This document shows positions 4,435 through 46,993 of a stretch of DNA of 64,000 nucleotides, piece by piece (position 1 is the first letter of the stretch; each line of letters starts with the position of its first letter). Origin of the DNA: a virus; the UHGV virus genome UHGV-0132465; one strand, given 5' to 3'. The position numbers were made by a program, and so were the translations under genes. Under the pieces are notes generated by a model. That model did not search any database, had not been told where the DNA came from, and saw only the letters and a list, made by a program, of their open reading frames with translations.

Positions 4435-5895
4435 TTACTTAGCGTACTCGATTAATTCCACAGTTTTCCCAAAGCTCGGGATATAATTTTTATTATACCC
4501 TTCGGTGAGAACCCATAAAGTATCGTACTTTTTCCACTTGTTGTCAACAGCCTTTTGTTCAAAGTTATGCTCAAAGTATAGGTCGGTCAGGACGATGACA
4601 TCTTTTGCATTCGGTATATTGGCATCCAGATACTTGAACACGCAAGCAGCTGTTGTGCCCCATGTTGAGTGGATCTCATAGTTGATCATCTCATCTATGT
4701 TACCGCGAGTGTATACTTTAACCTCTCCAACCTCAGTTGACCAACAGAACATTGTAACCTTAAACTCTTTATACAGATTGCACAATCCGGTGATTTCATT
4801 GAACATTTTCTTTAAAGTTCTTTGAGAGATCGAGCCAGAAACGTCTAAAGCCACAACAATATCTATAGTGTTTTCCGGATTACGACCAGGAACAATAACG
4901 TGCTGGTTCTTGTTTATGGCCCCAACTTTTCGCATTGTGCTGGTCAAAGACCCAGATCGGCGACCAGGTTTTCTGTAGGTCAGTTCAGCCTTTCGTTTAG
5001 ACAACATGCGTTGCTTAATAATGTCTATATAGTTGATTACAGGCTTACCTCTGTTCTTGACGAACTCACGCACCGCCTCGGGGCAACGACCTCCGGAAGC
5101 TTGCATTGCTGCCTCCAGCATGTCACCAGAGTCCTGCATGGCCTGATCTTTATCAGATTGGCTGATTACAGGTTGTGGCTGATCATACCCCATAGCCTTT
5201 CCAAGATCATCACTGGTGCCACCGTTCCCGCTCATGTGATCATCGGTTTGTCGTTTATCTCCTTGAGAGTTCTCACCTTTACCGTTCTTACTTTTACCGT
5301 TATTCTGATCTCTTTGTTTATCGAGAACTGCATAGACGTTTTCAGCAATCCATCCATGAAACTTCATGTCGCAGTAGCAATTAGCTAAGAAGCCAAAAGG
5401 CTTACCTTTTACGAACGTAGTGCTTTTCCCCTTCGGGAAGAAAACACAAGGAGGCTTGCTAAAGTCAACCACAAGGCCTGTGTTGATAACGTGATCACAG
5501 GCAATATTGAACAGCTCCGGCTCAAAGCTTTTACCACGGACCAAATGATCGCAGATAATATGCCCCACCTCATGTGACAGAAGAAAGGCCACCTCTTTCA
5601 CAGATTTTGGAGAATAGAAAACCTCAGCCATCTCAAACTGCTCGTCAGTTAGAGAGGCTTTAAGAATGGTTTTGCGCTCATCTGCCAACCCCATAATAAA
5701 CTCAGGGCTGTAATAGATGCGTTTATGGTCTGTTGCCATAGTGGAGCACCATGTGTGGTTTTCTACGAACTGCAACCCTGATAACAGTGTGCCATAAAAC
5801 GGCAGCTTTTCAAGGAGATACATACGTGCAGCCTGCAACATTCTCAGGGCATCATCTTTTTGCGAGGCAATGATTTCTGAACTTCTGCTATCCAT
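4435..5895 (-). CDS. predicted metallopeptidase (HExxH) fused to von Willebrand factor A domain (DUF2201/COG3864-like)
   Basis: HEVGHIICDH zinc-peptidase motif followed by VALDVSGSIS MIDAS motif; start moved to second ATG (MDSRSSEI) because the first ATG sits inside a GGGGCC-AAT-GGCCCC hairpin and the second has a GGAG RBS. Confidence 0.7.
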   Translation of the reverse strand: MDSRSSEIIASQKDDALRMLQAARMYLLEKLPFYGTLLSGLQFVENHTWCSTMATDHKRIYYSPEFIMGLADERKTILKASLTDEQFEMAEVFYSPKSVKEVAFLLSHEVGHIICDHLVRGKSFEPELFNIACDHVINTGLVVDFSKPPCVFFPKGKSTTFVKGKPFGFLANCYCDMKFHGWIAENVYAVLDKQRDQNNGKSKNGKGENSQGDKRQTDDHMSGNGGTSDDLGKAMGYDQPQPVISQSDKDQAMQDSGDMLEAAMQASGGRCPEAVREFVKNRGKPVINYIDIIKQRMLSKRKAELTYRKPGRRSGSLTSTMRKVGAINKNQHVIVPGRNPENTIDIVVALDVSGSISQRTLKKMFNEITGLCNLYKEFKVTMFCWSTEVGEVKVYTRGNIDEMINYEIHSTWGTTAACVFKYLDANIPNAKDVIVLTDLYFEHNFEQKAVDNKWKKYDTLWVLTEGYNKNYIPSFGKTVELIEYAK

Positions 5896-5928
5896 TAAAA
5901 CTCCAGAAGGGGCCATTGGCCCCTGTCA

Positions 5929-6915
5929 TTATTTAACGTGTTTGAAAATACTCGCCAACTCGGTCATCGTCATGCGGGTGGTCTTCATAAGGTCTGTCAT
6001 AGCTTTTTCCATAATCGGTGATACTACCATGAAGTTACCTTTAGTGAAACCTTTGTTCCAATCGGTTACCAACAGAGGTTTGATTCCTGCCCCAAGACGC
6101 TCACCAGTTAAAGCACAGCATTTGCGGATGTACGCACTCTTAAATTGGCTGAAGGACAGATCAACTTTCATACCTGCATCGTAGAACGTTTGGCAATAGA
6201 AAGTGTAAGCCTTGGCAATCTCAACATCATCAGGCAGTGCAGGAACCTCTTCTGCAACCTCCTCTTCGACCTCCTGAGGCTCTTTTTCCTCTTCAAAGGG
6301 CTGTTGCACCATTTCTTCAATTTCTTCTGTCACAGGCTCGTTTACGATGTCTGAAATGTGTTTGTTGGCTGCACGCTCTGCCATGAAATTCTTAAAGTCC
6401 TGCATTGGTGACATATCTTCCTCCTCTTCGTCAAATAGTGCTAGTTTATCTTCTTCTGTCCCGTATTGCAAGATGAAATCTTCAAAAGTATATTCATCTT
6501 TTAATTCCTCCATCCTCTCTTCGCTCAGGTGGAGCATCATTTGTTGGACAATTTTTCGATCAGTTTTGTCCTTAATCAAGATTGCGGTCGTTTTATCTAC
6601 CAGACAATCCTTGAGAGAGTTGCACCGAAGTCCCACCACACAACAGTTATCAATTGCGTAAGGACCTTCATCGTTTATCCGCTCCAAAGATGGGTAGAAC
6701 GGATTCCCCAGCCCGTTTTCATCTGTGTGCATGTCAAAAGGAATAAGGGTGTAGTCGCATACCCCCTCTCCTAAAAGTTTTTTACCGAATAGGAGGTATT
6801 CTTCCCACGACAGGTCGAACACTATACCTCGTTTTCGGGCATTATTCTGTTTGCGTCTGTATTTTTTGAGCAGGCGTTCTAGCTCTTCTGGTGTATAATA
6901 TTTTTCAAGATTCAT
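5929..6915 (-). CDS. hypothetical protein with internal duplication and acidic linker
   Basis: two related segments (GIVFDLSWEEY... and KVDLSFSQFKSAY...) separated by a Glu-rich stretch; start chosen at MNLEKYY to avoid overlap with the divergent promoter region. Confidence 0.5.
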   Translation of the reverse strand: MNLEKYYTPEELERLLKKYRRKQNNARKRGIVFDLSWEEYLLFGKKLLGEGVCDYTLIPFDMHTDENGLGNPFYPSLERINDEGPYAIDNCCVVGLRCNSLKDCLVDKTTAILIKDKTDRKIVQQMMLHLSEERMEELKDEYTFEDFILQYGTEEDKLALFDEEEEDMSPMQDFKNFMAERAANKHISDIVNEPVTEEIEEMVQQPFEEEKEPQEVEEEVAEEVPALPDDVEIAKAYTFYCQTFYDAGMKVDLSFSQFKSAYIRKCCALTGERLGAGIKPLLVTDWNKGFTKGNFMVVSPIMEKAMTDLMKTTRMTMTELASIFKHVK

Positions 6916-6946
6916 GAGTTGTCTCTTGTGCTCTGTAGGTGAAGAA

Positions 6947-9555: not shown

Positions 9556-10739
9556 TGTCAAGAAATGTATTCGAAAGTGGTCAAATCACTGTCCGCGAGT
9601 TGCCAGCTATTATTCAATTTGCCCAGCGTCATAACCGATCTGTCCTGATTTTAGGACCGATGGGTGTGGGAAAGAGCCAGGTGATGAAGCAGATTGCTGA
9701 TAATATGTTCGGTGAGCGAGATGACAACCTGGTTGACGTGCGGCTGTCAGATAAAGATCCTGCTGACTTATCCGGACTGCCTATCCCTGTAGAGTCAGAT
9801 GGAACTACACGTACAGTGTTTGCAATTCCAGAATTTTGGCCTGCAGATCCGAACTGGAGCGGAATTATCTTTCTGGATGAGCTTACTCATGCAGATAACT
9901 ACCTGCAGAAGGTTGCAATGCAAATTATGCTCGACAACAAGTGCGGCACCTATGCATTTCCTAAGGGCTCTGTTTTTGTAGCTGCAGGTAACCGTGCTAC
10001 AGATGGTGCTGTTCTTTCAGCGCTCGAAGCCCCTCTGGCTAACCGCTTTATCATTGTAGAAGTTACAAGCAGTGCAGAGGTATTTATTGAGGACTACGCA
10101 TTCCTTAATGGTGTACACTCCTCTGTAATTGGATATCTGAAAAGAGTTCCATCAGCTATCGATAATTATGAGGCTATGGCTGAGATTAATTGTCCATCTT
10201 TTGCCACACCGCGATCTTGGGTTGCTGCATCTGACATCTTGCACGATTTTGACAGCGGTATTATTTCTGACGCTATGGCTCGTGTTCTTCTGCAAGGTGC
10301 TATTGGTCACACTGCAGCGGTGGAAATCTGGACCTACCACACTAAGAAACGAAACTTGCCAGAAATCGGTCGGATTATGGCAGGGGGTTGCAAAGAATAT
10401 GTAGGTCCTAAGCAGCCAGATATCTTGTGGATTCTTGGGTCTGAAGGTTGTATTGCTATTCGGAATATGATGGAAAATGCAAGTGTCTCGGACGAAGACC
10501 TTGTTAGCTGCGTGGCAAACTTCCTCGATTTCCTTTGGGAAAATTTCAAAGATGAAAACCGAGACTTTGTATTCTCAGTCTTTATGGCGATGATGAAACC
10601 AAACGCTCTAGGAAATGCCTTGCTTATTGGTAAAGGCAGGGACAAGATCGTTGCTCAGCTGATCAAAGCATACCCAAACCTGATGAAGATTGTAAAAGAG
10701 TTTGGTGAAGAGTTTAGCGCCATTTTAGCTAAAGCTTGA
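9555..10739 (+). CDS. MoxR-type AAA+ ATPase (AAA_5-like)
   Basis: Walker A LILGPMGVGKSQ, Walker B IIFLDELTHAD, size and layout typical of MoxR/CoxD ATPases. Confidence 0.65.
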   Translation: MSRNVFESGQITVRELPAIIQFAQRHNRSVLILGPMGVGKSQVMKQIADNMFGERDDNLVDVRLSDKDPADLSGLPIPVESDGTTRTVFAIPEFWPADPNWSGIIFLDELTHADNYLQKVAMQIMLDNKCGTYAFPKGSVFVAAGNRATDGAVLSALEAPLANRFIIVEVTSSAEVFIEDYAFLNGVHSSVIGYLKRVPSAIDNYEAMAEINCPSFATPRSWVAASDILHDFDSGIISDAMARVLLQGAIGHTAAVEIWTYHTKKRNLPEIGRIMAGGCKEYVGPKQPDILWILGSEGCIAIRNMMENASVSDEDLVSCVANFLDFLWENFKDENRDFVFSVFMAMMKPNALGNALLIGKGRDKIVAQLIKAYPNLMKIVKEFGEEFSAILAKA

Positions 10740-37638: not shown

Positions 37639-38113
37639 TGCCACGTTAATTAATCCCTTTAGTGAAGATTTGAAGCCAGCGGCCTGGCGTGAGGGATTCA
37701 ACACAGAAAGATTTATTTTCAGGCCTGACCTTGAGGAATTTTATAACAATGGATCGAACAACGACAGAGATAATTTTTCTTGTAATGTGCGTGGTGATAA
37801 TACTCCTGGGGGCCATTACAAACCACGTCACTGCTAACAGGAGGAAAGGGGGAGACGATGACAACCAAGGATAAGCCCCGCACCGATAAGGTGCGCCGTG
37901 TTATGGTATGGCTTGAGATCATCGCCCTTGAAATATTGTTAGGCGTAGGGATGTACTTTATCGCTGTAAGTAACTGATAACGGCCCCCAATCCCTGGGGG
38001 CTTAACTTTTTCAAAAATTTTTCTTCTAGGGTGTTGCAATCCGGTCCGGAATATGGATAATAACAATCAACGGGGAGCAATCCCCACCACAAAGACTAGA
38101 AAGGAGAAACAAA

Positions 38114-38314
38114 ATGAGTAACAATATCCGCGTTATTAACTTCAAAAAAGAAGAAAAAATTGCCGTGCTGATTGACGGTCAAGAAATCTTTAAAGGTGAT
38201 TATGAAGATCATCAAACGGCGATTAGTATCACTCGCGTGATTGGTTACCATAATTTTTACCCTCAAGGCGCTGAGGCAGCAGTAAAACGAATTAAAGAGA
38301 TTGTAGGCCTGTAA
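38114..38314 (+). CDS. hypothetical protein (66 aa)
   Basis: ORF with AAAGGAGAAA RBS; upstream UTR hairpin GGGGAGCAATCCCC. Confidence 0.5.
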   Translation: MSNNIRVINFKKEEKIAVLIDGQEIFKGDYEDHQTAISITRVIGYHNFYPQGAEAAVKRIKEIVGL

Positions 38315-38317
38315 AAT

Positions 38318-38361
38318 TTATTTTTAGATGGCCTTGATTCCAGGGCCATCAATAAAGTAAA
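38318..38361 (+). repeat. 45-bp conserved intergenic element, copy 3
   Basis: near-identical to 33952-33996. Confidence 0.7.
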
Positions 38362-38399
38362 TTTAAACCCTGTTAAAATAATCAGTGCAAAAAGGAGTA

Positions 38400-38717
38400 A
38401 TGATCATGTTTATCCAGGCTAATAATCTTTATTTCTTTGATGGTCAGATCGTAGACGGCGTGGAGGTGGAAATCACTGGGTGCCCTGGCGGTCAGGTTAT
38501 GACTTTTCGGAATAATGCCTTTGATGATTCTCATATCGTTATGAGAATGGAAGTTAGTAAGCTGGATGATAAGAAAACATTGATTGACTATTCCGTCAAA
38601 GATCATCCAGACTACCACATGATCTATGGTGATTTGTGCATTGTTGACCGTGACAAGGTGAACGGCATTGTTATAGCCATTGTGAACGATGTTTTCTCTG
38701 AGTATTCCGGCAAATGA
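38400..38717 (+). CDS. hypothetical protein (about 105 aa)
   Basis: ATG after AAAGGAG; exact start (38400 or 38406) uncertain. Confidence 0.5.
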   Translation: MIMFIQANNLYFFDGQIVDGVEVEITGCPGGQVMTFRNNAFDDSHIVMRMEVSKLDDKKTLIDYSVKDHPDYHMIYGDLCIVDRDKVNGIVIAIVNDVFSEYSGK

Positions 38718-38928
38718 TGCAAAATAAGGCCCCTGGCAGGGCCTGCAGCGATATAATCACATAAAGGCTATGCGGTTGCATGGCCTTTATTATTTTAGCG
38801 TTACAGCTGCCCCCAAGGCGCTTAAAAAATTTTTAAAGAAGTACTTGCATCAAGCCCCACAATATGGATAATAAGAGTTGTCGAGGGGGCTATGCCTCCA
38901 ATCATTAACAGAAACAGGAGTTAAAACT

Positions 38929-39213
38929 ATGGCTATTGTTACCGCTGGCGATGTAGTAGAAATGGAAGCAAAATACTTAAAAGCGGGTATGCATATCCTA
39001 CGGAATGATCAAGAGTTATTATTAACGATGGTCGACTATAATCCCGGCCAGGATTATCCAAGCATCGACTACTTTTTTGAGTATGTTGATGAAGAGTTGA
39101 AAGAGGATGAGGCCTATTGCGGTGAGTTCTGCAACTTCTTTTGTCCTGATGAGGTTGTAAAGGTTATTTATCAACCTGGCGTAGCTTTCCCGCTGCACGC
39201 TATCAATAAATAA
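38929..39213 (+). CDS. hypothetical protein (94 aa)
   Basis: start at ATG after ACAGGAG RBS. Confidence 0.5.
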   Translation: MAIVTAGDVVEMEAKYLKAGMHILRNDQELLLTMVDYNPGQDYPSIDYFFEYVDEELKEDEAYCGEFCNFFCPDEVVKVIYQPGVAFPLHAINK

Positions 39214-39268
39214 ACCTGGCGGGGCCGAAAAGGCCCCCAATTATGAAAATAAAGATAGGTTAATCATC

Positions 39269-39502
39269 ATGATGGAACAAATTAAACGCGCCGAGGCTAT
39301 TAATGGCAATGTGATCTATTCTGTCAGCAAAAACGAAAAAGGCGTACCATATGCGGCGGTAATAGTACAGCCTGACGGCGATTATTGGCTTACTGTGTAC
39401 GGCGCGTATTCTTTCGGTCGTCCAGTGCATGATAAAATTTTGAAAGTAGCTAACCCTACGGGGAAGAATATCACGGCAGAAAAATTTTTTGAAAATAATT
39501 GA
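39269..39502 (+). CDS. hypothetical protein (77 aa)
   Basis: ORF in co-oriented block. Confidence 0.45.
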   Translation: MMEQIKRAEAINGNVIYSVSKNEKGVPYAAVIVQPDGDYWLTVYGAYSFGRPVHDKILKVANPTGKNITAEKFFENN

Positions 39503-39574
39503 CATGACCGCCTGAAAGTGTAGTATATAAATCAAAGGGCAAGCCCCGCCAACCACAAAGAGGATAAAAAAATC

Positions 39575-39754
39575 ATGGCTATTATTGCAAAGACCGAGAT
39601 TGCAGGTTTAGATTCTATTCTCCTGGCATATGAGGAAGCTATAGAAATGTATGTGGTTTCCTATGGTGAGTATATCCGTGAATATACATCTATTGATCTG
39701 GCTTTTGAATGTTATATCCGCCAGGTAAATAAAGCATATGATGATTATCGTTAA
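39575..39754 (+). CDS. small protein (59 aa)
   Basis: own TTGACA promoter, UTR hairpin and AGAGGA RBS; below ORF-track cutoff. Confidence 0.4.
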   Translation: MAIIAKTEIAGLDSILLAYEEAIEMYVVSYGEYIREYTSIDLAFECYIRQVNKAYDDYR

Positions 39755-39845
39755 AATAGTTTGACAACAAACAACTATCTAACAAAGCATAATACATAAG
39801 GTGGTAGAATGATCCGCCACCTGGAACAAAGAAGAGGTAAACACC

Positions 39846-40091
39846 ATGAAAAGCAATAAAGGTTATAACGGTCACAAAAACAAAACTCATTGGAATGTAA
39901 GCCTTTGGATTAATAACGATGAATCATTATACTTATACGCTGTAGGCTTAATAAATGAGTGCGGCAATAAAGATAAAGCGGCGGATCTAATGTGCTACAG
40001 ATTAAAACAGGACGGAATCACTCATACACCTGATGGTTTCAAGTATAGTAAAACTGCAATCCGTGCCGCTATGGTAGGAATGAAACACTAA
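39846..40091 (+). CDS. hypothetical protein (81 aa)
   Basis: ORF with AGAGG RBS; upstream UTR hairpin. Confidence 0.5.
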   Translation: MKSNKGYNGHKNKTHWNVSLWINNDESLYLYAVGLINECGNKDKAADLMCYRLKQDGITHTPDGFKYSKTAIRAAMVGMKH

Positions 40092-40165
40092 AAGCACATA
40101 GCCGCCTTACCCTGGGGCTGTGGTAGCGGCCCCATGAATAAGGTTACTAACAAAGAATAGAAAAC

Positions 40166-40270
40166 ATGAAACAGAAATTAATTGATGCGGTAATCCTGGT
40201 TATTGCCCTGGGTATTGGCCTGATTGCAACCATGGCTAATATGATCTTGTCTTCCAACGGTATCGGATAA
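40166..40270 (+). CDS. small hydrophobic peptide (34 aa)
   Basis: RBS-like purine tract; predicted single transmembrane helix. Confidence 0.3.
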   Translation: MKQKLIDAVILVIALGIGLIATMANMILSSNGIG

Positions 40271-40279
40271 GGTGGGCAA

Positions 40280-40495
40280 ATGATCACCAACAAAACAGGC
40301 AAAACAGAATTTTTACGCAACTTGCAGATCGGCAAGCCCGAGATCTGGTATTGCACTAAAACACCACGTGACGAAATGAAAGACTTCACCGCCACGCTGC
40401 AACGGGTAAAGATATCTATCACGCAGAAAAAAGCCTTGATAGTGGTTGAAGGTGAGATCCCTCAAGCCGTTGTTATAATTGAGCGTACAGCATAG
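40280..40495 (+). CDS. hypothetical protein (71 aa)
   Basis: ATG after AAGGTGGG RBS. Confidence 0.45.
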   Translation: MITNKTGKTEFLRNLQIGKPEIWYCTKTPRDEMKDFTATLQRVKISITQKKALIVVEGEIPQAVVIIERTA

Positions 40496-40586
40496 TTTAA
40501 TTTATACAGATACCCGAAAATTAACCAACAAAGCATAAACAGGCGGTTACCGCCGCCTTAAACGTAGCAGAAAGAGGATAGACAAC

Positions 40587-40871
40587 ATGAAAAAGATGAT
40601 CGCAGTGGTTGCCCTGGTTGTTGGACTTAATGCGCCTGTAATGGCTAAAGAGCTGGCAAAAGAGGTTGATCTAACGGATATCCATGCCGTCAATCAAATC
40701 GGGGTTACTTATCGCTTATGCCTTGCCGCTAAAACTTTTAATGACGGTACAACAGAGTACTACGGATTCGAGGGTATCCGGTGCGGTGAGCTTGCTCGCG
40801 ACCTTAAGGAAGATCCAGACCTGGAGGATCTGCCCATCACCGTAAACGGTAAAGCTTACGTAAACCGTTAA
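40587..40871 (+). CDS. secreted hypothetical protein (94 aa)
   Basis: signal-peptide-like N terminus MKKMIAVVALVVGLNAPVMA; AGAGGA RBS. Confidence 0.5.
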   Translation: MKKMIAVVALVVGLNAPVMAKELAKEVDLTDIHAVNQIGVTYRLCLAAKTFNDGTTEYYGFEGIRCGELARDLKEDPDLEDLPITVNGKAYVNR

Positions 40872-40873
40872 CC

Positions 40874-41008
40874 ATGAGAAAGATGATCATCACCTTGGGG
40901 ATTGTGGCGGGATTGCTGGCGCTCTTTCCCCTTATGGTTAGGTATGTGCTGATCAGTGTTGTCCTGGTAGTCAGCGATCTAATGTTATATATTAACTCAT
41001 TGTTTTAG
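40874..41008 (+). CDS. small hydrophobic peptide (44 aa)
   Basis: immediately follows upstream stop; two hydrophobic stretches. Confidence 0.3.
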   Translation: MRKMIITLGIVAGLLALFPLMVRYVLISVVLVVSDLMLYINSLF

Positions 41009-41016
41009 GTGGAATA

Positions 41017-41208
41017 ATGACAGCAGAAGAAGTTAAAAAAGTACTGGCAGTACTACGTTACCATAATCATTGTAAGGTGAAGAATGATCCTGATTATCTC
41101 GATTCATCCCTTGAAGAGGATACACTACAAGCCATAAGTAACATGCAAGAATTGCTAAAGCGCATGACAGAGAAAAACCGACCGGACTACATAGGCGAAA
41201 AAATATAA
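41017..41208 (+). CDS. hypothetical protein (63 aa)
   Basis: ATG after AGGTGGAA RBS. Confidence 0.45.
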   Translation: MTAEEVKKVLAVLRYHNHCKVKNDPDYLDSSLEEDTLQAISNMQELLKRMTEKNRPDYIGEKI

Positions 41209-41419
41209 TCCTTATTGACTAGAAAACAGGGCTTGCAATGGTCCTGTTTTTTGTTATACTTATTCCACGGCAGGCACCTGGCGACGGGGGGAGACAATCA
41301 CCGGGCCTGCCTGTCATATAAGAACTATAAAAACCGTTGACATCTGCCAGGGGGTGGGGTAACATTTATCTTGAAGGGGCAAAAGTGCCCACACAACAAC
41401 CAGAAGAGAGGAAAACATT

Positions 41420-41692
41420 ATGTCAAGCTGGATTAATCAAGAAGTCGAATCACGTTTTAATGCTATCTGGGATCTCGTAGAAAAAGAGGACGGAACATCA
41501 AGCCCCTACCTCAACAATTTGGAATTCCATTTTGTGGAAGCGATGAACGCAGAACATGATCACGAAGGTGGCGCGGATGAGTTCGCTAAAGGTTATGGCT
41601 TTAACAATGCCAACGAAATGATCGAGTCGGTTGTACTCCAAGCCGAGGAAGATTATCAATTAAAAACGCTTGAATTCTGCCGCCGCAAGTAA
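41420..41692 (+). CDS. hypothetical protein (90 aa)
   Basis: own TTGACA promoter, UTR hairpin GGGGCAAAAGTGCCC, AGAGAGG RBS. Confidence 0.5.
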   Translation: MSSWINQEVESRFNAIWDLVEKEDGTSSPYLNNLEFHFVEAMNAEHDHEGGADEFAKGYGFNNANEMIESVVLQAEEDYQLKTLEFCRRK

Positions 41693-41752
41693 TAAGATAA
41701 TGACAAGGGCCGAAAGGCCCACTAATCAGAACCGCACAAAGAGGAAAACATC

Positions 41753-42016
41753 ATGAAACGTCTTGATCAGCTCAAATTAGTTCAATATATGGCTTATCGT
41801 GTTCTTGAAGTACAGAAAGGCAGCAAAAAAGAAGTTTGCGAGAAAGCGTACAAGATCTTTACTCGCAAAAAAGACGATTGGATGTTACGCCAGACTAAAA
41901 AGGCTGACATCTTGGGGTACCTGGAAGAAGAGATCCGGCTTGAAGAACAAGAAGAGATCCGCCGTAGTGAGGCAGATTATCAGGCAGCTTGGGAAAACTG
42001 GATGAGCAACAAATAA
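41753..42016 (+). CDS. hypothetical protein (87 aa)
   Basis: UTR hairpin GGGCCGAAAGGCCC then AGAGGAAAA RBS. Confidence 0.5.
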   Translation: MKRLDQLKLVQYMAYRVLEVQKGSKKEVCEKAYKIFTRKKDDWMLRQTKKADILGYLEEEIRLEEQEEIRRSEADYQAAWENWMSNK

Positions 42017-42158
42017 TACAACAAGTTACATGGTCAGGGGCAATAAAGCCCCTTGATCACACAAAAATTATGCTATCCTTGTTGACAGAGATCGGCAGTT
42101 TTGCTATATTCTTTTTGAAGGGCAGTTGTAAGAAAATTAACTAAGAGGTAAAAACACC

Positions 42159-42578
42159 ATGAACATTAAATCTGATAATCCGGCATATAGCTTTGATAAC
42201 GCTTTTTGTCACGGTCCGGCGGCGAAAGGATTCGAAATCGATGGTAAACTAATTATTGTCAATGTTGACGGGGAAGAGGTTGCAGTATATCCGGTGGCAG
42301 ACGTTAAAAGCCGTCTACAATGCCGCATCGATGTTACCGCCTACCAGCTTGATCCGGTCCGGGTAGTTGCCCTGGTCCTGGAAGAAGAAATTAAAGCAAT
42401 GCACCACAGCAACAAGTTTATTGGTGACGCTCAAGATAATATGCAGGTATGCCGCTATAAAGTTAATGAAGTGCTTAAAGAGTACGGCTATAAGGATTTA
42501 ATGATCAAGCGTGATGAAAAATTCCGCTACCGTAACGACCTGGCAAATCGGATTTTTGAAATATACGAATCATTATAA
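42159..42578 (+). CDS. hypothetical protein (139 aa)
   Basis: ORF with AGAGG RBS; last gene of plus-strand array. Confidence 0.5.
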   Translation: MNIKSDNPAYSFDNAFCHGPAAKGFEIDGKLIIVNVDGEEVAVYPVADVKSRLQCRIDVTAYQLDPVRVVALVLEEEIKAMHHSNKFIGDAQDNMQVCRYKVNEVLKEYGYKDLMIKRDEKFRYRNDLANRIFEIYESL

Positions 42579-42596: not shown

Positions 42597-42623
42597 AAGG
42601 GGCTTAAAGGCCCCTTTCTTTTT
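42597..42623 (+). terminator. intrinsic terminator (AAGGGGC-TTAAA-GGCCCCTT + TCTTTTT)
   Basis: GC hairpin and T-run after last plus-strand gene. Confidence 0.7.
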
Positions 42624-43208
42624 GTCTGCTCTTCTCCTACCATAAACGGCCCTACCTGGCAAGTGGAATAATTGACTAGCCATCAATCCCACACACTGTA
42701 TAAATATACATGGAAAATAACTATTGCATAATTTTTCATTGTGTGGTAGCAAGGCCATTTTTACCCGTTTTCTCTCCCAAAATTGCACGTAATGCCGCTA
42801 TTGCACAAAATTTAACCTGATGCACATCTTCAACATCTTGTCAATAACTAAAAATCTTTATAAGTCATACACTTACACAACCATAAAGCCGTGTTCTACG
42901 TGAAAAATCGAGTATAACTATAGCCGCCAGATCTCAGAATTTACGTACGTTCACCATTCTATAGCCTGCAAAGTATTTATTCCAACCACAGAATAACGGA
43001 ATAGTCAATACCTGCATAAAATAATTATTCGTGTAAACTGCATAACATAAATCAGCTCAGGTGTCAACATTTTTCGTAAGCAGTTCGAAATTGTCACGAT
43101 AAGTTATTATACACAAAGAAATCTTTAGTCGTCTAATGGTTACTATACATTACTAATCTGACTGGAATCATTAGATGACTAAGAGAAAGATAAGAAATAA
43201 TTAATAAT

Positions 43209-43518
43209 GTAATTGTTTTACCTGTAACAATAAGGCAACTATGCAAACGAATGGCATGGCGCGACGGAGTCGCGACATAATATAAAAGCAGTAACCATCA
43301 CCCCCGTGATAGTTTTTCTGCAATCTATTACTCAGATCATAGTTGCCTTGTATTTAGTTAATCATGACATAACAAGCAAGGCAACTATAGATCTTCTAAT
43401 AGTTGCCCTGCTTTTATATTATGTCATAGAAACGCCCGAAGGGGTGACCTAGTCACCTGGCATAGCCAGCGAAAGATTATTATCTTGTTAATTGTTTTCA
43501 TGCAAACGAATGTCATGG
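43209..43518. repeat. cluster of palindromes and iteron-like repeats (AAGGCAACTAT / ATAGTTGCC x4; GCAAACGAATGNCATGGC x2; GGTGAC-cta-GTCACC)
   Basis: multiple direct and inverted copies within 300 bp of an ORF-poor region between convergent gene blocks. Confidence 0.6.
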
Positions 43519-44268
43519 CTTATCATCTATGCGTGAACTATCCAGGCGTAAACAGTCTATGCGGGAACAATCTATACGGGAACAGTGAGGCATGCAATAG
43601 TAACAACTGTTATTGTATCCGGTGTGTTGAGTATGCCCGGTGTGTCACTATTATGTCACATTATGTCAGACAAGTTTTTCTCCTCTTTGTCAAGTGCTGC
43701 ATGAAAAATTTACAAACTGGTATGGTAGCATTTTTGCGGCCCTGTTTACATTCAGAAATGTATGTATAATCCTTGGTGTGTGGGCGTTTAGACGTCTGGA
43801 CGGTCAGAAGTCCGCAGGTCAATATCTAATCTATTGGTTGCTAACTATATCCCACACAAATAGTAAGAAATATAATTGTTATGTGCGTAAACAGTAACCC
43901 ATGTTATCAATCCCTGTATGTATCGCCAGTGGTGCGCATAATGGGTATTATGTTAAATTGCCCGTAATGATAACTATTCTCACAATGATAGGTATTCTCA
44001 TTCATCCCCACAAGATAGATTGCAAATGTTGTGCCACTGTGTGAACGGCCTGGTCTATTAATTTGCCTCACTGCCTCGATATTTGAGAATTATTATAAAA
44101 ATGAGAAGTATTCCCATTCCGTCCGCCTGGCAGCACTCCTGTAGGACAAGCACAAAATCGGGGCATAACTGACCTGTTCAGATATTTCTGGCTGACTCTT
44201 CAGGTCTGTGTGGGAAAAGCCAACCTCTCCGGCGGCGGGGTAGGGGTCAATTAAAAAATTTATGCGGT

Positions 44269-44325
44269 GTATGAAACCCTCTTCAGGCAAGGTGTGTATT
44301 ATGGTATGAAACCCTCTTCAGGCAA
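44269..44325. repeat. exact 22-bp direct repeat GTATGAAACCCTCTTCAGGCAA x2, 35 bp apart
   Basis: perfect duplication; flanked by related G-rich motifs at 44226-44250 and 44371-44396. Confidence 0.7.
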
Positions 44326-45084
44326 TGATATTTGTGGGTGTGATATTTGCTGGAAAGCCAGATATGACGGGACTCCCGGCGGGGCAGGGGTAGTACAGAC
44401 AGGGAAAATGTGGGGATGTAGTTGGGGAAATTGATCAGACAGGTAGAGTATGGAATATGTTATGAATATGTTAAATATGGAGGGTGAATATCTGTAGGAT
44501 TTGTGTGTAAAATCAAAGACTTAAGTGGTGTTGTGGTATTTTCTATAAATAATTCAAGTTTAATAGGTAATATTTGTCTCTATCCACTTTGTGTGGTAAA
44601 CAGATTTAGATGAAATTGGTTTACAAGTGTATACATAATATACAAATTAAAGATACAAGAAACCCCCCTCCCCCTTCGGCTACCATTCACCTTTTCCTCT
44701 GACTGGTACTTAAACACTTATTCAGACTCTTCAGGTTATCACCCATATACTATATGGCAGTGACTGGTGTCCTCCGGCCCCTCTTTCGTCACCCGTCCGC
44801 TTCGCCAAGCTAATGCCATAGCCAAATGTTCGGTTGTTCACCCTGTTCACTCAGGTGTATCTCCATACCCCTTCAAACCGAAGAGAACAGAAAACCCGAA
44901 TTACTCGGTAAAAGAAAAGAGAAGAACTTAATTTTATCAAGATAGGCAAGAATGTCAAGGGATGACTGCTCACTAAACAAGCAAACAGTCATGTGTGGTA
45001 GGTAAGTGATTGTAGTGGTGGAAAATTTAGTTGAAAGATGTGTTATAGTGCTCCCAGCACTTTAGCCGGGCAGCTAATTGTGTG

Positions 45085-45300
45085 TCAGTCCAGAGGTTCA
45101 TCCTCCACTTCACTGAAATCAATGTTCATGGTCTCTTCCCAACCATCGATCTCAGCACAAGAGTGAAGTTCTTTAGGGTTTACTCCCAAAGCCTCAGCAA
45201 CAGAGTCTATATTTAACACCTCTGGCAGGTATGATTCATCAAATTCAAGGTAAATCAGGCCACGAGTGTTGTCAGCCCCACCAAATATTTCTATTTTCAT
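45085..45300 (-). CDS. small acidic protein (71 aa), MK(I/V)-family member
   Basis: ORF with GGAG RBS; starts MKIEIF like several downstream paralogues. Confidence 0.5.
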   Translation of the reverse strand: MKIEIFGGADNTRGLIYLEFDESYLPEVLNIDSVAEALGVNPKELHSCAEIDGWEETMNIDFSEVEDEPLD

Positions 45301-45419
45301 GAAATCTCCTCTGGAAATGAGAGTGTGAACAGGGTTATACGTTCCAATATGATGGAATTATGCACGTTTGCCTCTTCAGGCCATGCTTTAGCATGATAAA
45401 CTTATGTGGGCTCGGTGCT

Positions 45420-46687: not shown

Positions 46688-46993
46688 TTATTCTACAGAG
46701 CGTTTGAACAGAATGTCTGCTTCAGACATGTGCTCAACCTCCTCTTCGATTTTAGCTCGACGTTTTTCAGCTTCGTAGCGGATATCGAACTCGGTAGCCA
46801 CCAATGACTTGATAAACTTAGGAGAATACAAGTGATCCTGTTTCTCGACAAGAATAATATCCTTGATAGCGTCTTTCAGATCTTTAATCTGAAGCTGAAG
46901 TTCCACCAGCTCTTCAATTGTTTTACGGAGGCGATCACGCTCTGCAATGTCAGAAGGAAGAGAGGTGAACAGTTCAACTTTAGATTTAGCCAT
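46688..46993 (-). CDS. hypothetical coiled-coil-like protein (101 aa)
   Basis: ORF; heptad-like charged sequence. Confidence 0.5.
   Translation of the reverse strand: MAKSKVELFTSLPSDIAERDRLRKTIEELVELQLQIKDLKDAIKDIILVEKQDHLYSPKFIKSLVATEFDIRYEAEKRRAKIEEEVEHMSEADILFKRSVE

Follow-up and report, generated by a model that had tools for sequence, protein, structure and literature searches.

Phages of the T7/SP6 type carry the same sequence of a few hundred bp at both ends of their DNA, with fixed boundaries, and one copy of this repeat lies between genomes in concatemers, with arrays of short repeats and inward promoters adjoining the junction. T7 itself has such repeat arrays and an end-proximal promoter. 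In the chromosomal dif site of Escherichia coli and in the plasmid sites cer and psi, an 11-bp XerC arm and an 11-bp XerD arm enclose a centre of 6–8 bp (6 bp in dif). Integrative mobile elements exploiting Xer (IMEX), such as CTXphi, VGJphi and TLC, are small, carry a dif-like site and rely on the host recombinases XerC and XerD (XerCD); on the XerC side, their centres match that of the host. Cre/lox can cyclise terminally redundant DNA of phage P1. Here, a window of 64,000 nucleotides from the virus genome UHGV-0132465 was analyzed, and its gene-free region at 42624–45084 was assigned a direct terminal repeat in which a dif-type Xer site is embedded.

As read from relatives, this locus resembles the T7/SP6 type in all of the features named, as do the relatives EdH4 and HdK5 (458 bp) and Erwinia phage Hena1 (519 bp) in the length of the repeat and its fixed boundaries. 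It differs from T7 in that its replication and packaging proteins are not those of T7, and in that a host recombination site lies in its repeat, a feature absent from repeats of the T7 type. With dif, cer and psi it has the order and length of arms and centre in common; its arms are identical to those of dif and its centre is unlike that of the chromosome, as in the plasmid sites, whereas, unlike them, it is located in a terminal repeat, that of a virulent myovirus of 137 kb. Like the IMEX, it belongs to a mobile element for which reliance on host XerCD is proposed here; unlike them, the element is neither small nor integrative, and both arms of its site are perfect.

The terminal repeat and its boundaries

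The 2.46-kb region matched 122 phage records with 88–95% identity, nearly all of them classified or named as rV5-like coliphages (genus Vequintavirus). Judged by these matches, the window is that of a Vequintavirus. The two elements that carry the argument are the following.

43669–44127, no strand assigned: direct terminal repeat of 459 bp, present as a single copy in this assembly, placed by the ends of EdH4 and HdK5 and by record starts
43931–43958, plus strand: dif-type Xer site GGTGCGCATAA-TGGGTA-TTATGTTAAAT (XerC arm, 6-bp centre, XerD arm), inside the terminal repeat

Short terminal redundancies of 458 bp were reported (Korf et al. 2019; PMC6563267) for two Vequintaviruses, EdH4 and HdK5. 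When both ends of both records were read, the first 459 nt were found to equal the last 459 nt, and this repeat maps to 43669/43670–44127 of the window (in EdH4 with 95.6% identity and without gaps). Records from other laboratories open at the same two nucleotides: Pr121LW, ECP2303 and YN3 at 43669, and bov10K2 and bov11CS3, like EdH4 and HdK5, at 44127 on the other strand. Pr121LW starts with GACAAGTTTTT (43669) and ends with ...TATGTCA (43668), which means that its unit genome is cut exactly at the 43668/43669 boundary. The first view that record starts were merely the annotators' choice was dropped once two exact positions recurred. Furthermore, conservation among 13 close genomes returns sharply at 43665. 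In Hena1, from a different genus of the same subfamily, the annotated terminal repeats are 519 bp long and identical; their start, AACACTTTTCTATCTTCCTGTCAAGT, resembles GACAAGTTTTTCTCCTCTTTGTCAAGT at 43669 of the window, and the last bases of the repeat are similar as well.

The 459-nt ends of the relatives and the shared record starts thus point to a direct terminal repeat inside the gene-free region. By this evidence, writing the sequence as a circle brings the two ends of the linear virion genome together in this region. The initial annotation had offered genome terminus, packaging site or origin as candidates for the region, and its reading as a terminus or terminal repeat is supported by the identical ends of EdH4 and HdK5, the report on them, and the independent record starts at both boundaries. 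The short terminal repeat of the genus has already been published, in one sentence; the embedded dif site, present throughout the subfamily and not mentioned in the initial annotation, apparently has not.

That the region is gene-free and lies between convergent blocks had also been proposed from the sequence, and both points held. The left block ends at 42578, and the last gene of the right block occupies 45085–45300 on the minus strand. The equivalent gap of rV5, 104014–106617 between ORF163 and ORF164, was drawn in the rV5 genome paper (2013) as a grey box labeled 'non-coding' and left unexplained. Comparison of the open reading frames (ORFs) across relatives gave no coding signature by evolutionary criteria. 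ORFs of at least 40 amino acids were intact in zero to four of 12 relatives, with the exception of a 47-amino-acid ORF at 43901–44044 that was intact in 10 of the 12 and frameshifted in the other two (L004 and L011). A coding substitution pattern was found in no ORF of at least 25 amino acids among the 13 genomes, and in ORFs that stayed open the variable columns were spread evenly over the codon positions (e.g., 12/13/12 and 4/4/4). A peptide MIFV...TGL encoded in 44325–44390 was rejected as a candidate, being accounted for by repeated DNA motifs. The search with Rfam gave no match at gathering scores in the whole window, with matches at chance level (E-values up to 5) in the region, and a tRNA scan found nothing. 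The mean pairwise identity of the non-coding region was 0.83, compared to 0.77 at third codon positions of the flanking genes, and the stretches 43216–43430, 43665–43960 and 44480–44960 were almost invariant in the 13 genomes.

If the repeat is placed correctly, it would give these genomes a rational start at 43669–44127 and correct annotations as 'circularly permuted'. This matters since the rV5 box has stood without explanation from 2013 onwards, and GenBank records of this phage group, widely used in therapy and biocontrol, mostly open at arbitrary points. The assessment of transduction risk would be affected too, because packaging with exact ends transduces less than headful packaging.

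The dif-type site

When E. coli genomes were searched with high sensitivity, a 40-nt match turned up in strain UTI89, adjoining an integrated filamentous prophage. The sequence there is GGTGCGCATAATGTATATTATGTTAAAT, which we take to be the chromosomal dif site; among 5426 complete E. coli genomes, 4852 have it in single copy. Both 11-bp arms of the site in the window are identical to those of E. coli dif, while the two middle positions of the centre are different. When the centre was left free, the dif pattern matched once in the window and never in 100 shuffled sequences, even with three mismatches allowed.

The site was present in all 13 close genomes, and a 50-nt query revealed it throughout the Vequintavirinae, in at least six genera. 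In PVP-SE1, EC152, CR3, CB7, KpS8 and A5-4 it lies in a gene-poor gap between convergent blocks, and in Hena1 inside the annotated terminal repeat. An attempt to use synteny by way of a conserved 101-amino-acid protein failed because gene order differs in the other genera; the homologous junction was identified there because the dif site itself served as the marker.

Among eight phages, the XerD arm was invariant and the XerC arm read (G/A)GTGCG(C/T)ATAA. The centres were TGGGTA, GGTGTA, CGTGTA, CGTGTT or GTTGTA, matching the host centre TGTATA at four of six positions and never in full. Pairwise identity in the eight-phage alignment was 0.956 for the arms and 0.76 for the centre, compared to about 0.40 for the flanks. 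By this contrast, the site forms an island under selection, surrounded by DNA that otherwise cannot be aligned. Carriers of the dif pattern in IMG/VR were mostly small contigs, and the large ones were mostly of the size of Vequintavirinae genomes. No paper linking Xer with Vequintavirinae phages was found in the library searched. The embedded, subfamily-wide dif site appears not to have been described before, and the phages that carry it appear to belong with the mobile elements exploiting Xer.

The motif GGGNAGGG, the consensus guiding FtsK (FtsK-orienting polar sequence, KOPS), occurs 10 times in the window (5.2 expected), without clear polarity. Three copies lie to the right of the dif-type site, at 44238 and 44382 (plus strand) and at 44666 (minus strand), and only the one on the minus strand points at the site. 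A neighboring protein of 87 amino acids that is labeled 'DNA translocase FtsK' in some records was discarded as a candidate, as it has no FtsK domain.

Flanking repeats and a proposed route of packaging and closure

Repeats of several families lie on both sides of the terminal repeat. Those on the left are the following.

43216–43430, no strand assigned: near-invariant block of about 210 bp with four copies of AAGGCAACTAT, an 18-nt inverted repeat and a hairpin with a C5 loop (43293–43314)
43241–43260, plus strand: 20-nt direct repeat ATGCAAACGAATGNCATGGC with a second copy at 43500–43519, bracketing the palindromic block
43433–43476, plus strand: 44-nt mini-element of three hairpins, present or absent among relatives
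43525–43584, plus strand: tandem array of four 15-nt units, ATCTATGCGGGAACA, in the one part of the region that is poorly conserved and rich in indels
43649–43668, plus strand: tandem TATTATGTCA / CATTATGTCA, ending exactly at the repeat boundary TGTCA^GACA

The initial annotation had listed AAGGCAACTAT four times in both orientations. Three copies are exact (43232 on the plus, 43339 on the minus and 43378 on the plus strand), and the fourth (43399, minus strand) contains a mismatch; six matches were found in the window, with 1.4 expected. The inverted pair at 43377–43409, described as perfect, has one mismatch (93%), and the pairs that are perfect are 43339–50/43377–88 and the 18-nt pair 43274–91/43408–25. 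The CTATGCGGGAAC-like repeats reported as triple are real, but they form an array of four 15-nt units at 43525–43584 with 75% matches. The TATTATGTCA-like family has five copies in 43273–43668, two of which are part of the 18-nt palindrome, and has TTATGT in common with the XerD arm. In the 64 kb it occurs 12 times (5.8 expected); six of these fall in 43273–43955, one being the XerD arm of the dif-type site itself. The block 43216–43430 is a candidate binding array for terminase or another protein.

The 44-nt element was absent from four of the 13 close genomes; in L004 it lies elsewhere and in the other orientation (10319–10362), and L014 has three copies. Its stems show compensatory changes. 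Similar copies were found in small E. coli replicons with genes for phage tail proteins, and at three places in plasmid NZ_CP043822.1. It is apparently a miniature mobile element.

The right flank contains three further families.

44196, 44279 and 44314 (also 44727 and 45372), plus strand: CTCTTCAGG, interleaved with GATATTTG
44237 (plus strand), 44381 (plus strand) and 44663–44674 (minus strand): G4-N-G4 runs GGGGTAGGGG, GGGGCAGGGG and GGGGGAGGGGGG
44269–44325, plus strand: 22-bp direct repeat GTATGAAACCCTCTTCAGGCAA, two copies 35 bp apart

The exact 22-bp direct repeat at 44269/44304 and the paired G-rich motifs had both been pointed out from the sequence and were found again. CTCTTCAGG occurs eight times in the window (0.54 expected), five times in 44196–45380, and three of the window's four copies of GATATTTG lie at 44078, 44327 and 44342. 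G4-N-G4 runs occur four times in the window (0.9 expected); the three in the region are convergent and kept in all relatives. Taken together, the arrays on both sides, among them the repeats singled out in the initial annotation just outside the terminal repeat (43209–43585 on the left, 44269–44325 on the right), are plausible signals for the binding of terminase or another protein. A pseudo-ToxI antitoxin mimic as in phage phiTE, with tandem repeats of about 36 nt, was considered for the 22-bp repeat and rejected, as the repeat is not tandem, its spacers of 13 nt are unrelated and the locus is not syntenic. The pseudo-ToxI RNA of phiTE (L038; 106714–106772) is flanked by tRNA genes and lies upstream of the terminase gene, not at the convergent junction, so that the two loci have no relation to each other.

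A distant sister clade (L003, L019 and others) is known from metagenomes and has no cultured representative. Three islands of the region can be aligned with it, and the overall layout is the same, with many repeated motifs changed. Its equivalent of 43216–43430 keeps the layout with different arm and iteron sequences, both copies of the 20-nt direct repeat are kept (L003 about 8097 and 8340), and the CTCTTCAGG and GATATTTG families are repeated there as well.

It is proposed that concatemers contain a single copy of the terminal repeat between genomes and that terminase would recognize the flanking arrays, on the left the TATTATGTCA family and the block of AAGGCAACTAT and the 18-nt palindrome, on the right the modules of CTCTTCAGG, GATATTTG and G-runs. 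Cuts would fall at TGTCA^GACAAG (43668/43669) and CCGCC^TGGCAG (44127/44128), and the repeat would be duplicated during packaging in the fashion of T7. Injected DNA would then carry two dif sites in direct orientation, one at each end, and host XerC/XerD would recombine them, yielding a circle with one repeat and a discarded linear piece of 459 bp. A centre that is never that of the host would favor recombination of phage with phage and disfavor fusion with the chromosome. Two conserved sigma-70 promoters, described below, would fire inwards to the repeat. As a whole, a terminal-repeat junction with an embedded dif site, cut by terminase, closed by XerCD and entered by inward promoters is in our judgment the probable explanation of the region. 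Its functional part is put forward more tentatively: the site may, on comparative grounds, let XerCD cyclise the incoming linear genome or process replicating multimers of Vequintavirinae, with the non-host centre preventing fusion with the chromosome, a reading held to be somewhat less likely than not.

The proposal resembles P1 Cre/loxP, where a recombination site within the terminal redundancy closes injected linear DNA without homologous recombination. P1 differs in being temperate, in using a recombinase of its own and in having the site in only some headfuls, whereas in Vequintavirinae the enzymes would be those of the host and the site is in the fixed repeat of every genome. If the proposal is true, large lytic phages would for the first time join the elements that exploit Xer, and these phages would be a recombinase-free counterpart of P1 Cre/lox. 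Use of the dif site would mean a new dependence of a lytic phage on a host housekeeping enzyme, with xerC, xerD and ftsK as testable host factors, and would offer a natural site-specific handle for engineering these phages.

Several observations weigh against this explanation. For XerCD to recombine chromosomal dif fully, FtsK at the septum is normally required, and the KOPS-like motifs do not converge on the dif-type site. No accessory region of the PepA/ArgR/ArcA type was recognized here. The sister clade L003/L019 has a degenerate site only, with arms matching at 8/11 and 7/11. The two boundaries would mark the virion DNA ends by way of relatives that are 92–96% identical. Lastly, published PhageTerm analyses classified four bovine Vequintaviruses as 'circularly permuted' and one Indian isolate as 'headful', and BAL-31 digestion was published as indicating permutation in the Certreviruses CB7 and phiTE.

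Inward promoters, rival explanations and neighboring loci

Four transcription signals or products were placed in or beside the region.

42597–42616, plus strand: intrinsic terminator closing the left (plus-strand) gene block, with an 8-bp G+C stem followed by a T run; an annotated terminator in Murica and Alma
42838–42864, plus strand: promoter-like TTGTCA-15-TATAAG, read from the sequence, directed rightwards to the terminal repeat
44652–44928, minus strand: candidate structured non-coding RNA of about 275 nt, whose 5' leader is CU-rich and whose 3' tail is G-rich; it also has a hairpin with a U run
44931–44958, minus strand: strong sigma-70 promoter TTGACA-16-TGnTAAAAT (11/12 matches, with TG), directed leftwards to the terminal repeat

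The left promoter was missed by the promoter scan because of its 15-nt spacer; it is one of the three islands that can be aligned with the distant clade. The right promoter is kept in that clade as TTGCAA-17-TATAAT and would give rise to the structured RNA, whose DNA is almost invariant in the 13 genomes. In the consensus fold, the CU-rich leader pairs with the G-rich tail in both clades. Between the clades, 19 of 57 pairs change on both sides, compared to 0–6 in slid controls, a covariation that comes from two lineages and from a structure derived from the same alignment. The minimum-energy folds are alike in the two clades, with z-scores of only −1.1 and −1.8. As far as comparative data go, this promoter likely drives a conserved transcript of about 275 nt.

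Could this RNA, acting on host or phage targets, be the main product of the region, with RNAs as its purpose and the DNA repeats secondary? The promoter conserved in both clades, the invariant transcribed DNA, the shared fold and the compensatory changes are in keeping with such a locus. The missing Rfam match, the modest z-scores and the origin of the covariation in two lineages are not, and the terminal repeat and the dif site would be left unexplained. It is a possible, if rather unlikely, account of the region. The G5AG6TTT tail of the candidate RNA, at 44661–44681 (GAAGGGGGAGGGGGGTTT on the minus strand), seems to resemble closely the conserved sequence block II of human mitochondrial DNA. 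In that block, transcription is stalled by a G-rich RNA, and the R-loop formed by this RNA primes replication. GGA motifs in 44395–44500 prompted the idea of a CsrA sponge, which was set aside. A search of the literature on transcripts or the origin of these phages found nothing relevant.

An origin of replication, possibly besides the terminus, would have iterons that bind an initiator, and inward promoters and G-runs forming R-loops that prime DNA synthesis by an A+T-rich stretch. Several iteron-like families keep their layout while their sequence changes between clades, the promoters are convergent and conserved, G4-N-G4 runs are present, and two or three perfect DnaA boxes (TGTGGATAA) occur at the aligned place in the distant clade. 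Moreover, the authors of the rV5 paper could not locate an origin; their GC-skew search recovered changes in transcription direction only. In the window, too, cumulative GC skew peaks at 44–45 kb, at the switch of gene strand, and thus merely follows transcription direction. This clade has no cluster of DnaA boxes, and its single TTATACACA is not conserved. The neighboring proteins have no Pfam domains, let alone an initiator-like one; forks leaving the region would meet transcription head-on, because the genes converge on it; and the distant clade tolerates an HNH gene of 0.8 kb between its right-hand modules. An origin at this place is considered possible but rather unlikely.

The HNH endonuclease gene lies at 9716–10486 in L003 and at about 7215–7990 in L019, corresponding to about 44553–44690 of the window. 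Its promoter reads TTGACTCTTCAGG...TGTGTGGTATATT, which reveals the CTCTTCAGG motif to be reused. The tandem TGTGGATAA boxes lie within what corresponds to the terminal repeat in the sister clade (L003 8841–8885, L019 about 6440–6475). With DnaA boxes present and the dif-like site degenerate, that clade may have swapped one host-factor site for another.

If the genome were circularly permuted, without fixed ends, the repeats would be a pac site, the starting point of processive headful packaging, and the 459-bp 'terminal repeat' an artefact of assembly or processing. The PhageTerm and BAL-31 results cited above agree with this, as does the published statement that PVP-SE1 is permuted. The bovine libraries, however, were transposase-based, which loses DNA ends, and the revised bovine records still open at 44127. 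Identical 459-nt ends at the same coordinates in two genomes (EdH4 and HdK5), records of unrelated laboratories that open at exactly two same nucleotides, and the annotated repeat of Hena1, at the homologous place in a different genus and with a similar boundary sequence, argue for the terminal repeat. Permuted DNA without fixed ends, the mark of a headful pac site, is at odds with these ends and starts, and headful packaging is regarded as quite improbable.

Alternatively, the dif site could serve integration into the host chromosome as in IMEX, in a hidden lysogenic or carrier state. Its arms are identical to host dif, and CTX-type phages turned up in the similarity search with the 50-nt dif query. 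In addition, an E. coli isolate has yielded a 137.6-kb record, filed as a 'plasmid', that amounts to a complete Vequintavirus genome. This record, CP057073.1 in PLSDB (137,565 bp, the genome length of a Vequintavirus; non-mobilizable; from pooled cattle faeces), matches the whole region with 88.7% identity at 4496–6938; the isolate may have carried, or been contaminated with, a phage whose genome was then assembled as a circle. Vequintaviruses are described as strictly lytic in the literature, and the centre differs from that of the host in every phage compared. None of the 5426 complete E. coli genomes carries the region (best coverage 2%), and integrated copies flanked by dif-like sites, by which IMEX are recognized, were not found among them. 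Since none of these chromosomes carries the region, integration is very improbable.

That the region is a spacer of decayed genes, with leftover promoters, untranslated leaders and terminators of no present function, can hardly be upheld: fragments do resemble the promoter, 5' hairpin and CCACAA cassette of neighboring early genes, and the region has been a landing place for the mini-element and the HNH gene, but blocks of 200–300 nt are nearly invariant while synonymous sites of the flanking genes differ by 23%, and islands and motif families are kept in an otherwise unalignable clade.

Among the matching records, 19 (MG0656xx) are named 'Campylobacter phage', with C. jejuni given as host, and are about 92% identical to coliphage rV5 here; this host label looks doubtful. 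The 101-amino-acid protein encoded at 46691–46993 on the minus strand has 97–100% identity in the Vequintavirus records listed and 42–58% in other genera of the subfamily. It is called 'transcriptional regulator' in some records, and its sole Pfam hint is a sub-threshold match to GapR-like DNA-binding proteins. Upstream of small plus-strand genes at 38000–42160, several of the regions inspected have a common cassette of a sigma-70-like promoter, a transcript start with a short G+C hairpin, a CCACAA-like stretch and the ribosome-binding site AGAGGAAAACAT before ATG. The counts of the motif TGTGTGG / CCCACACA arise partly from this cassette.

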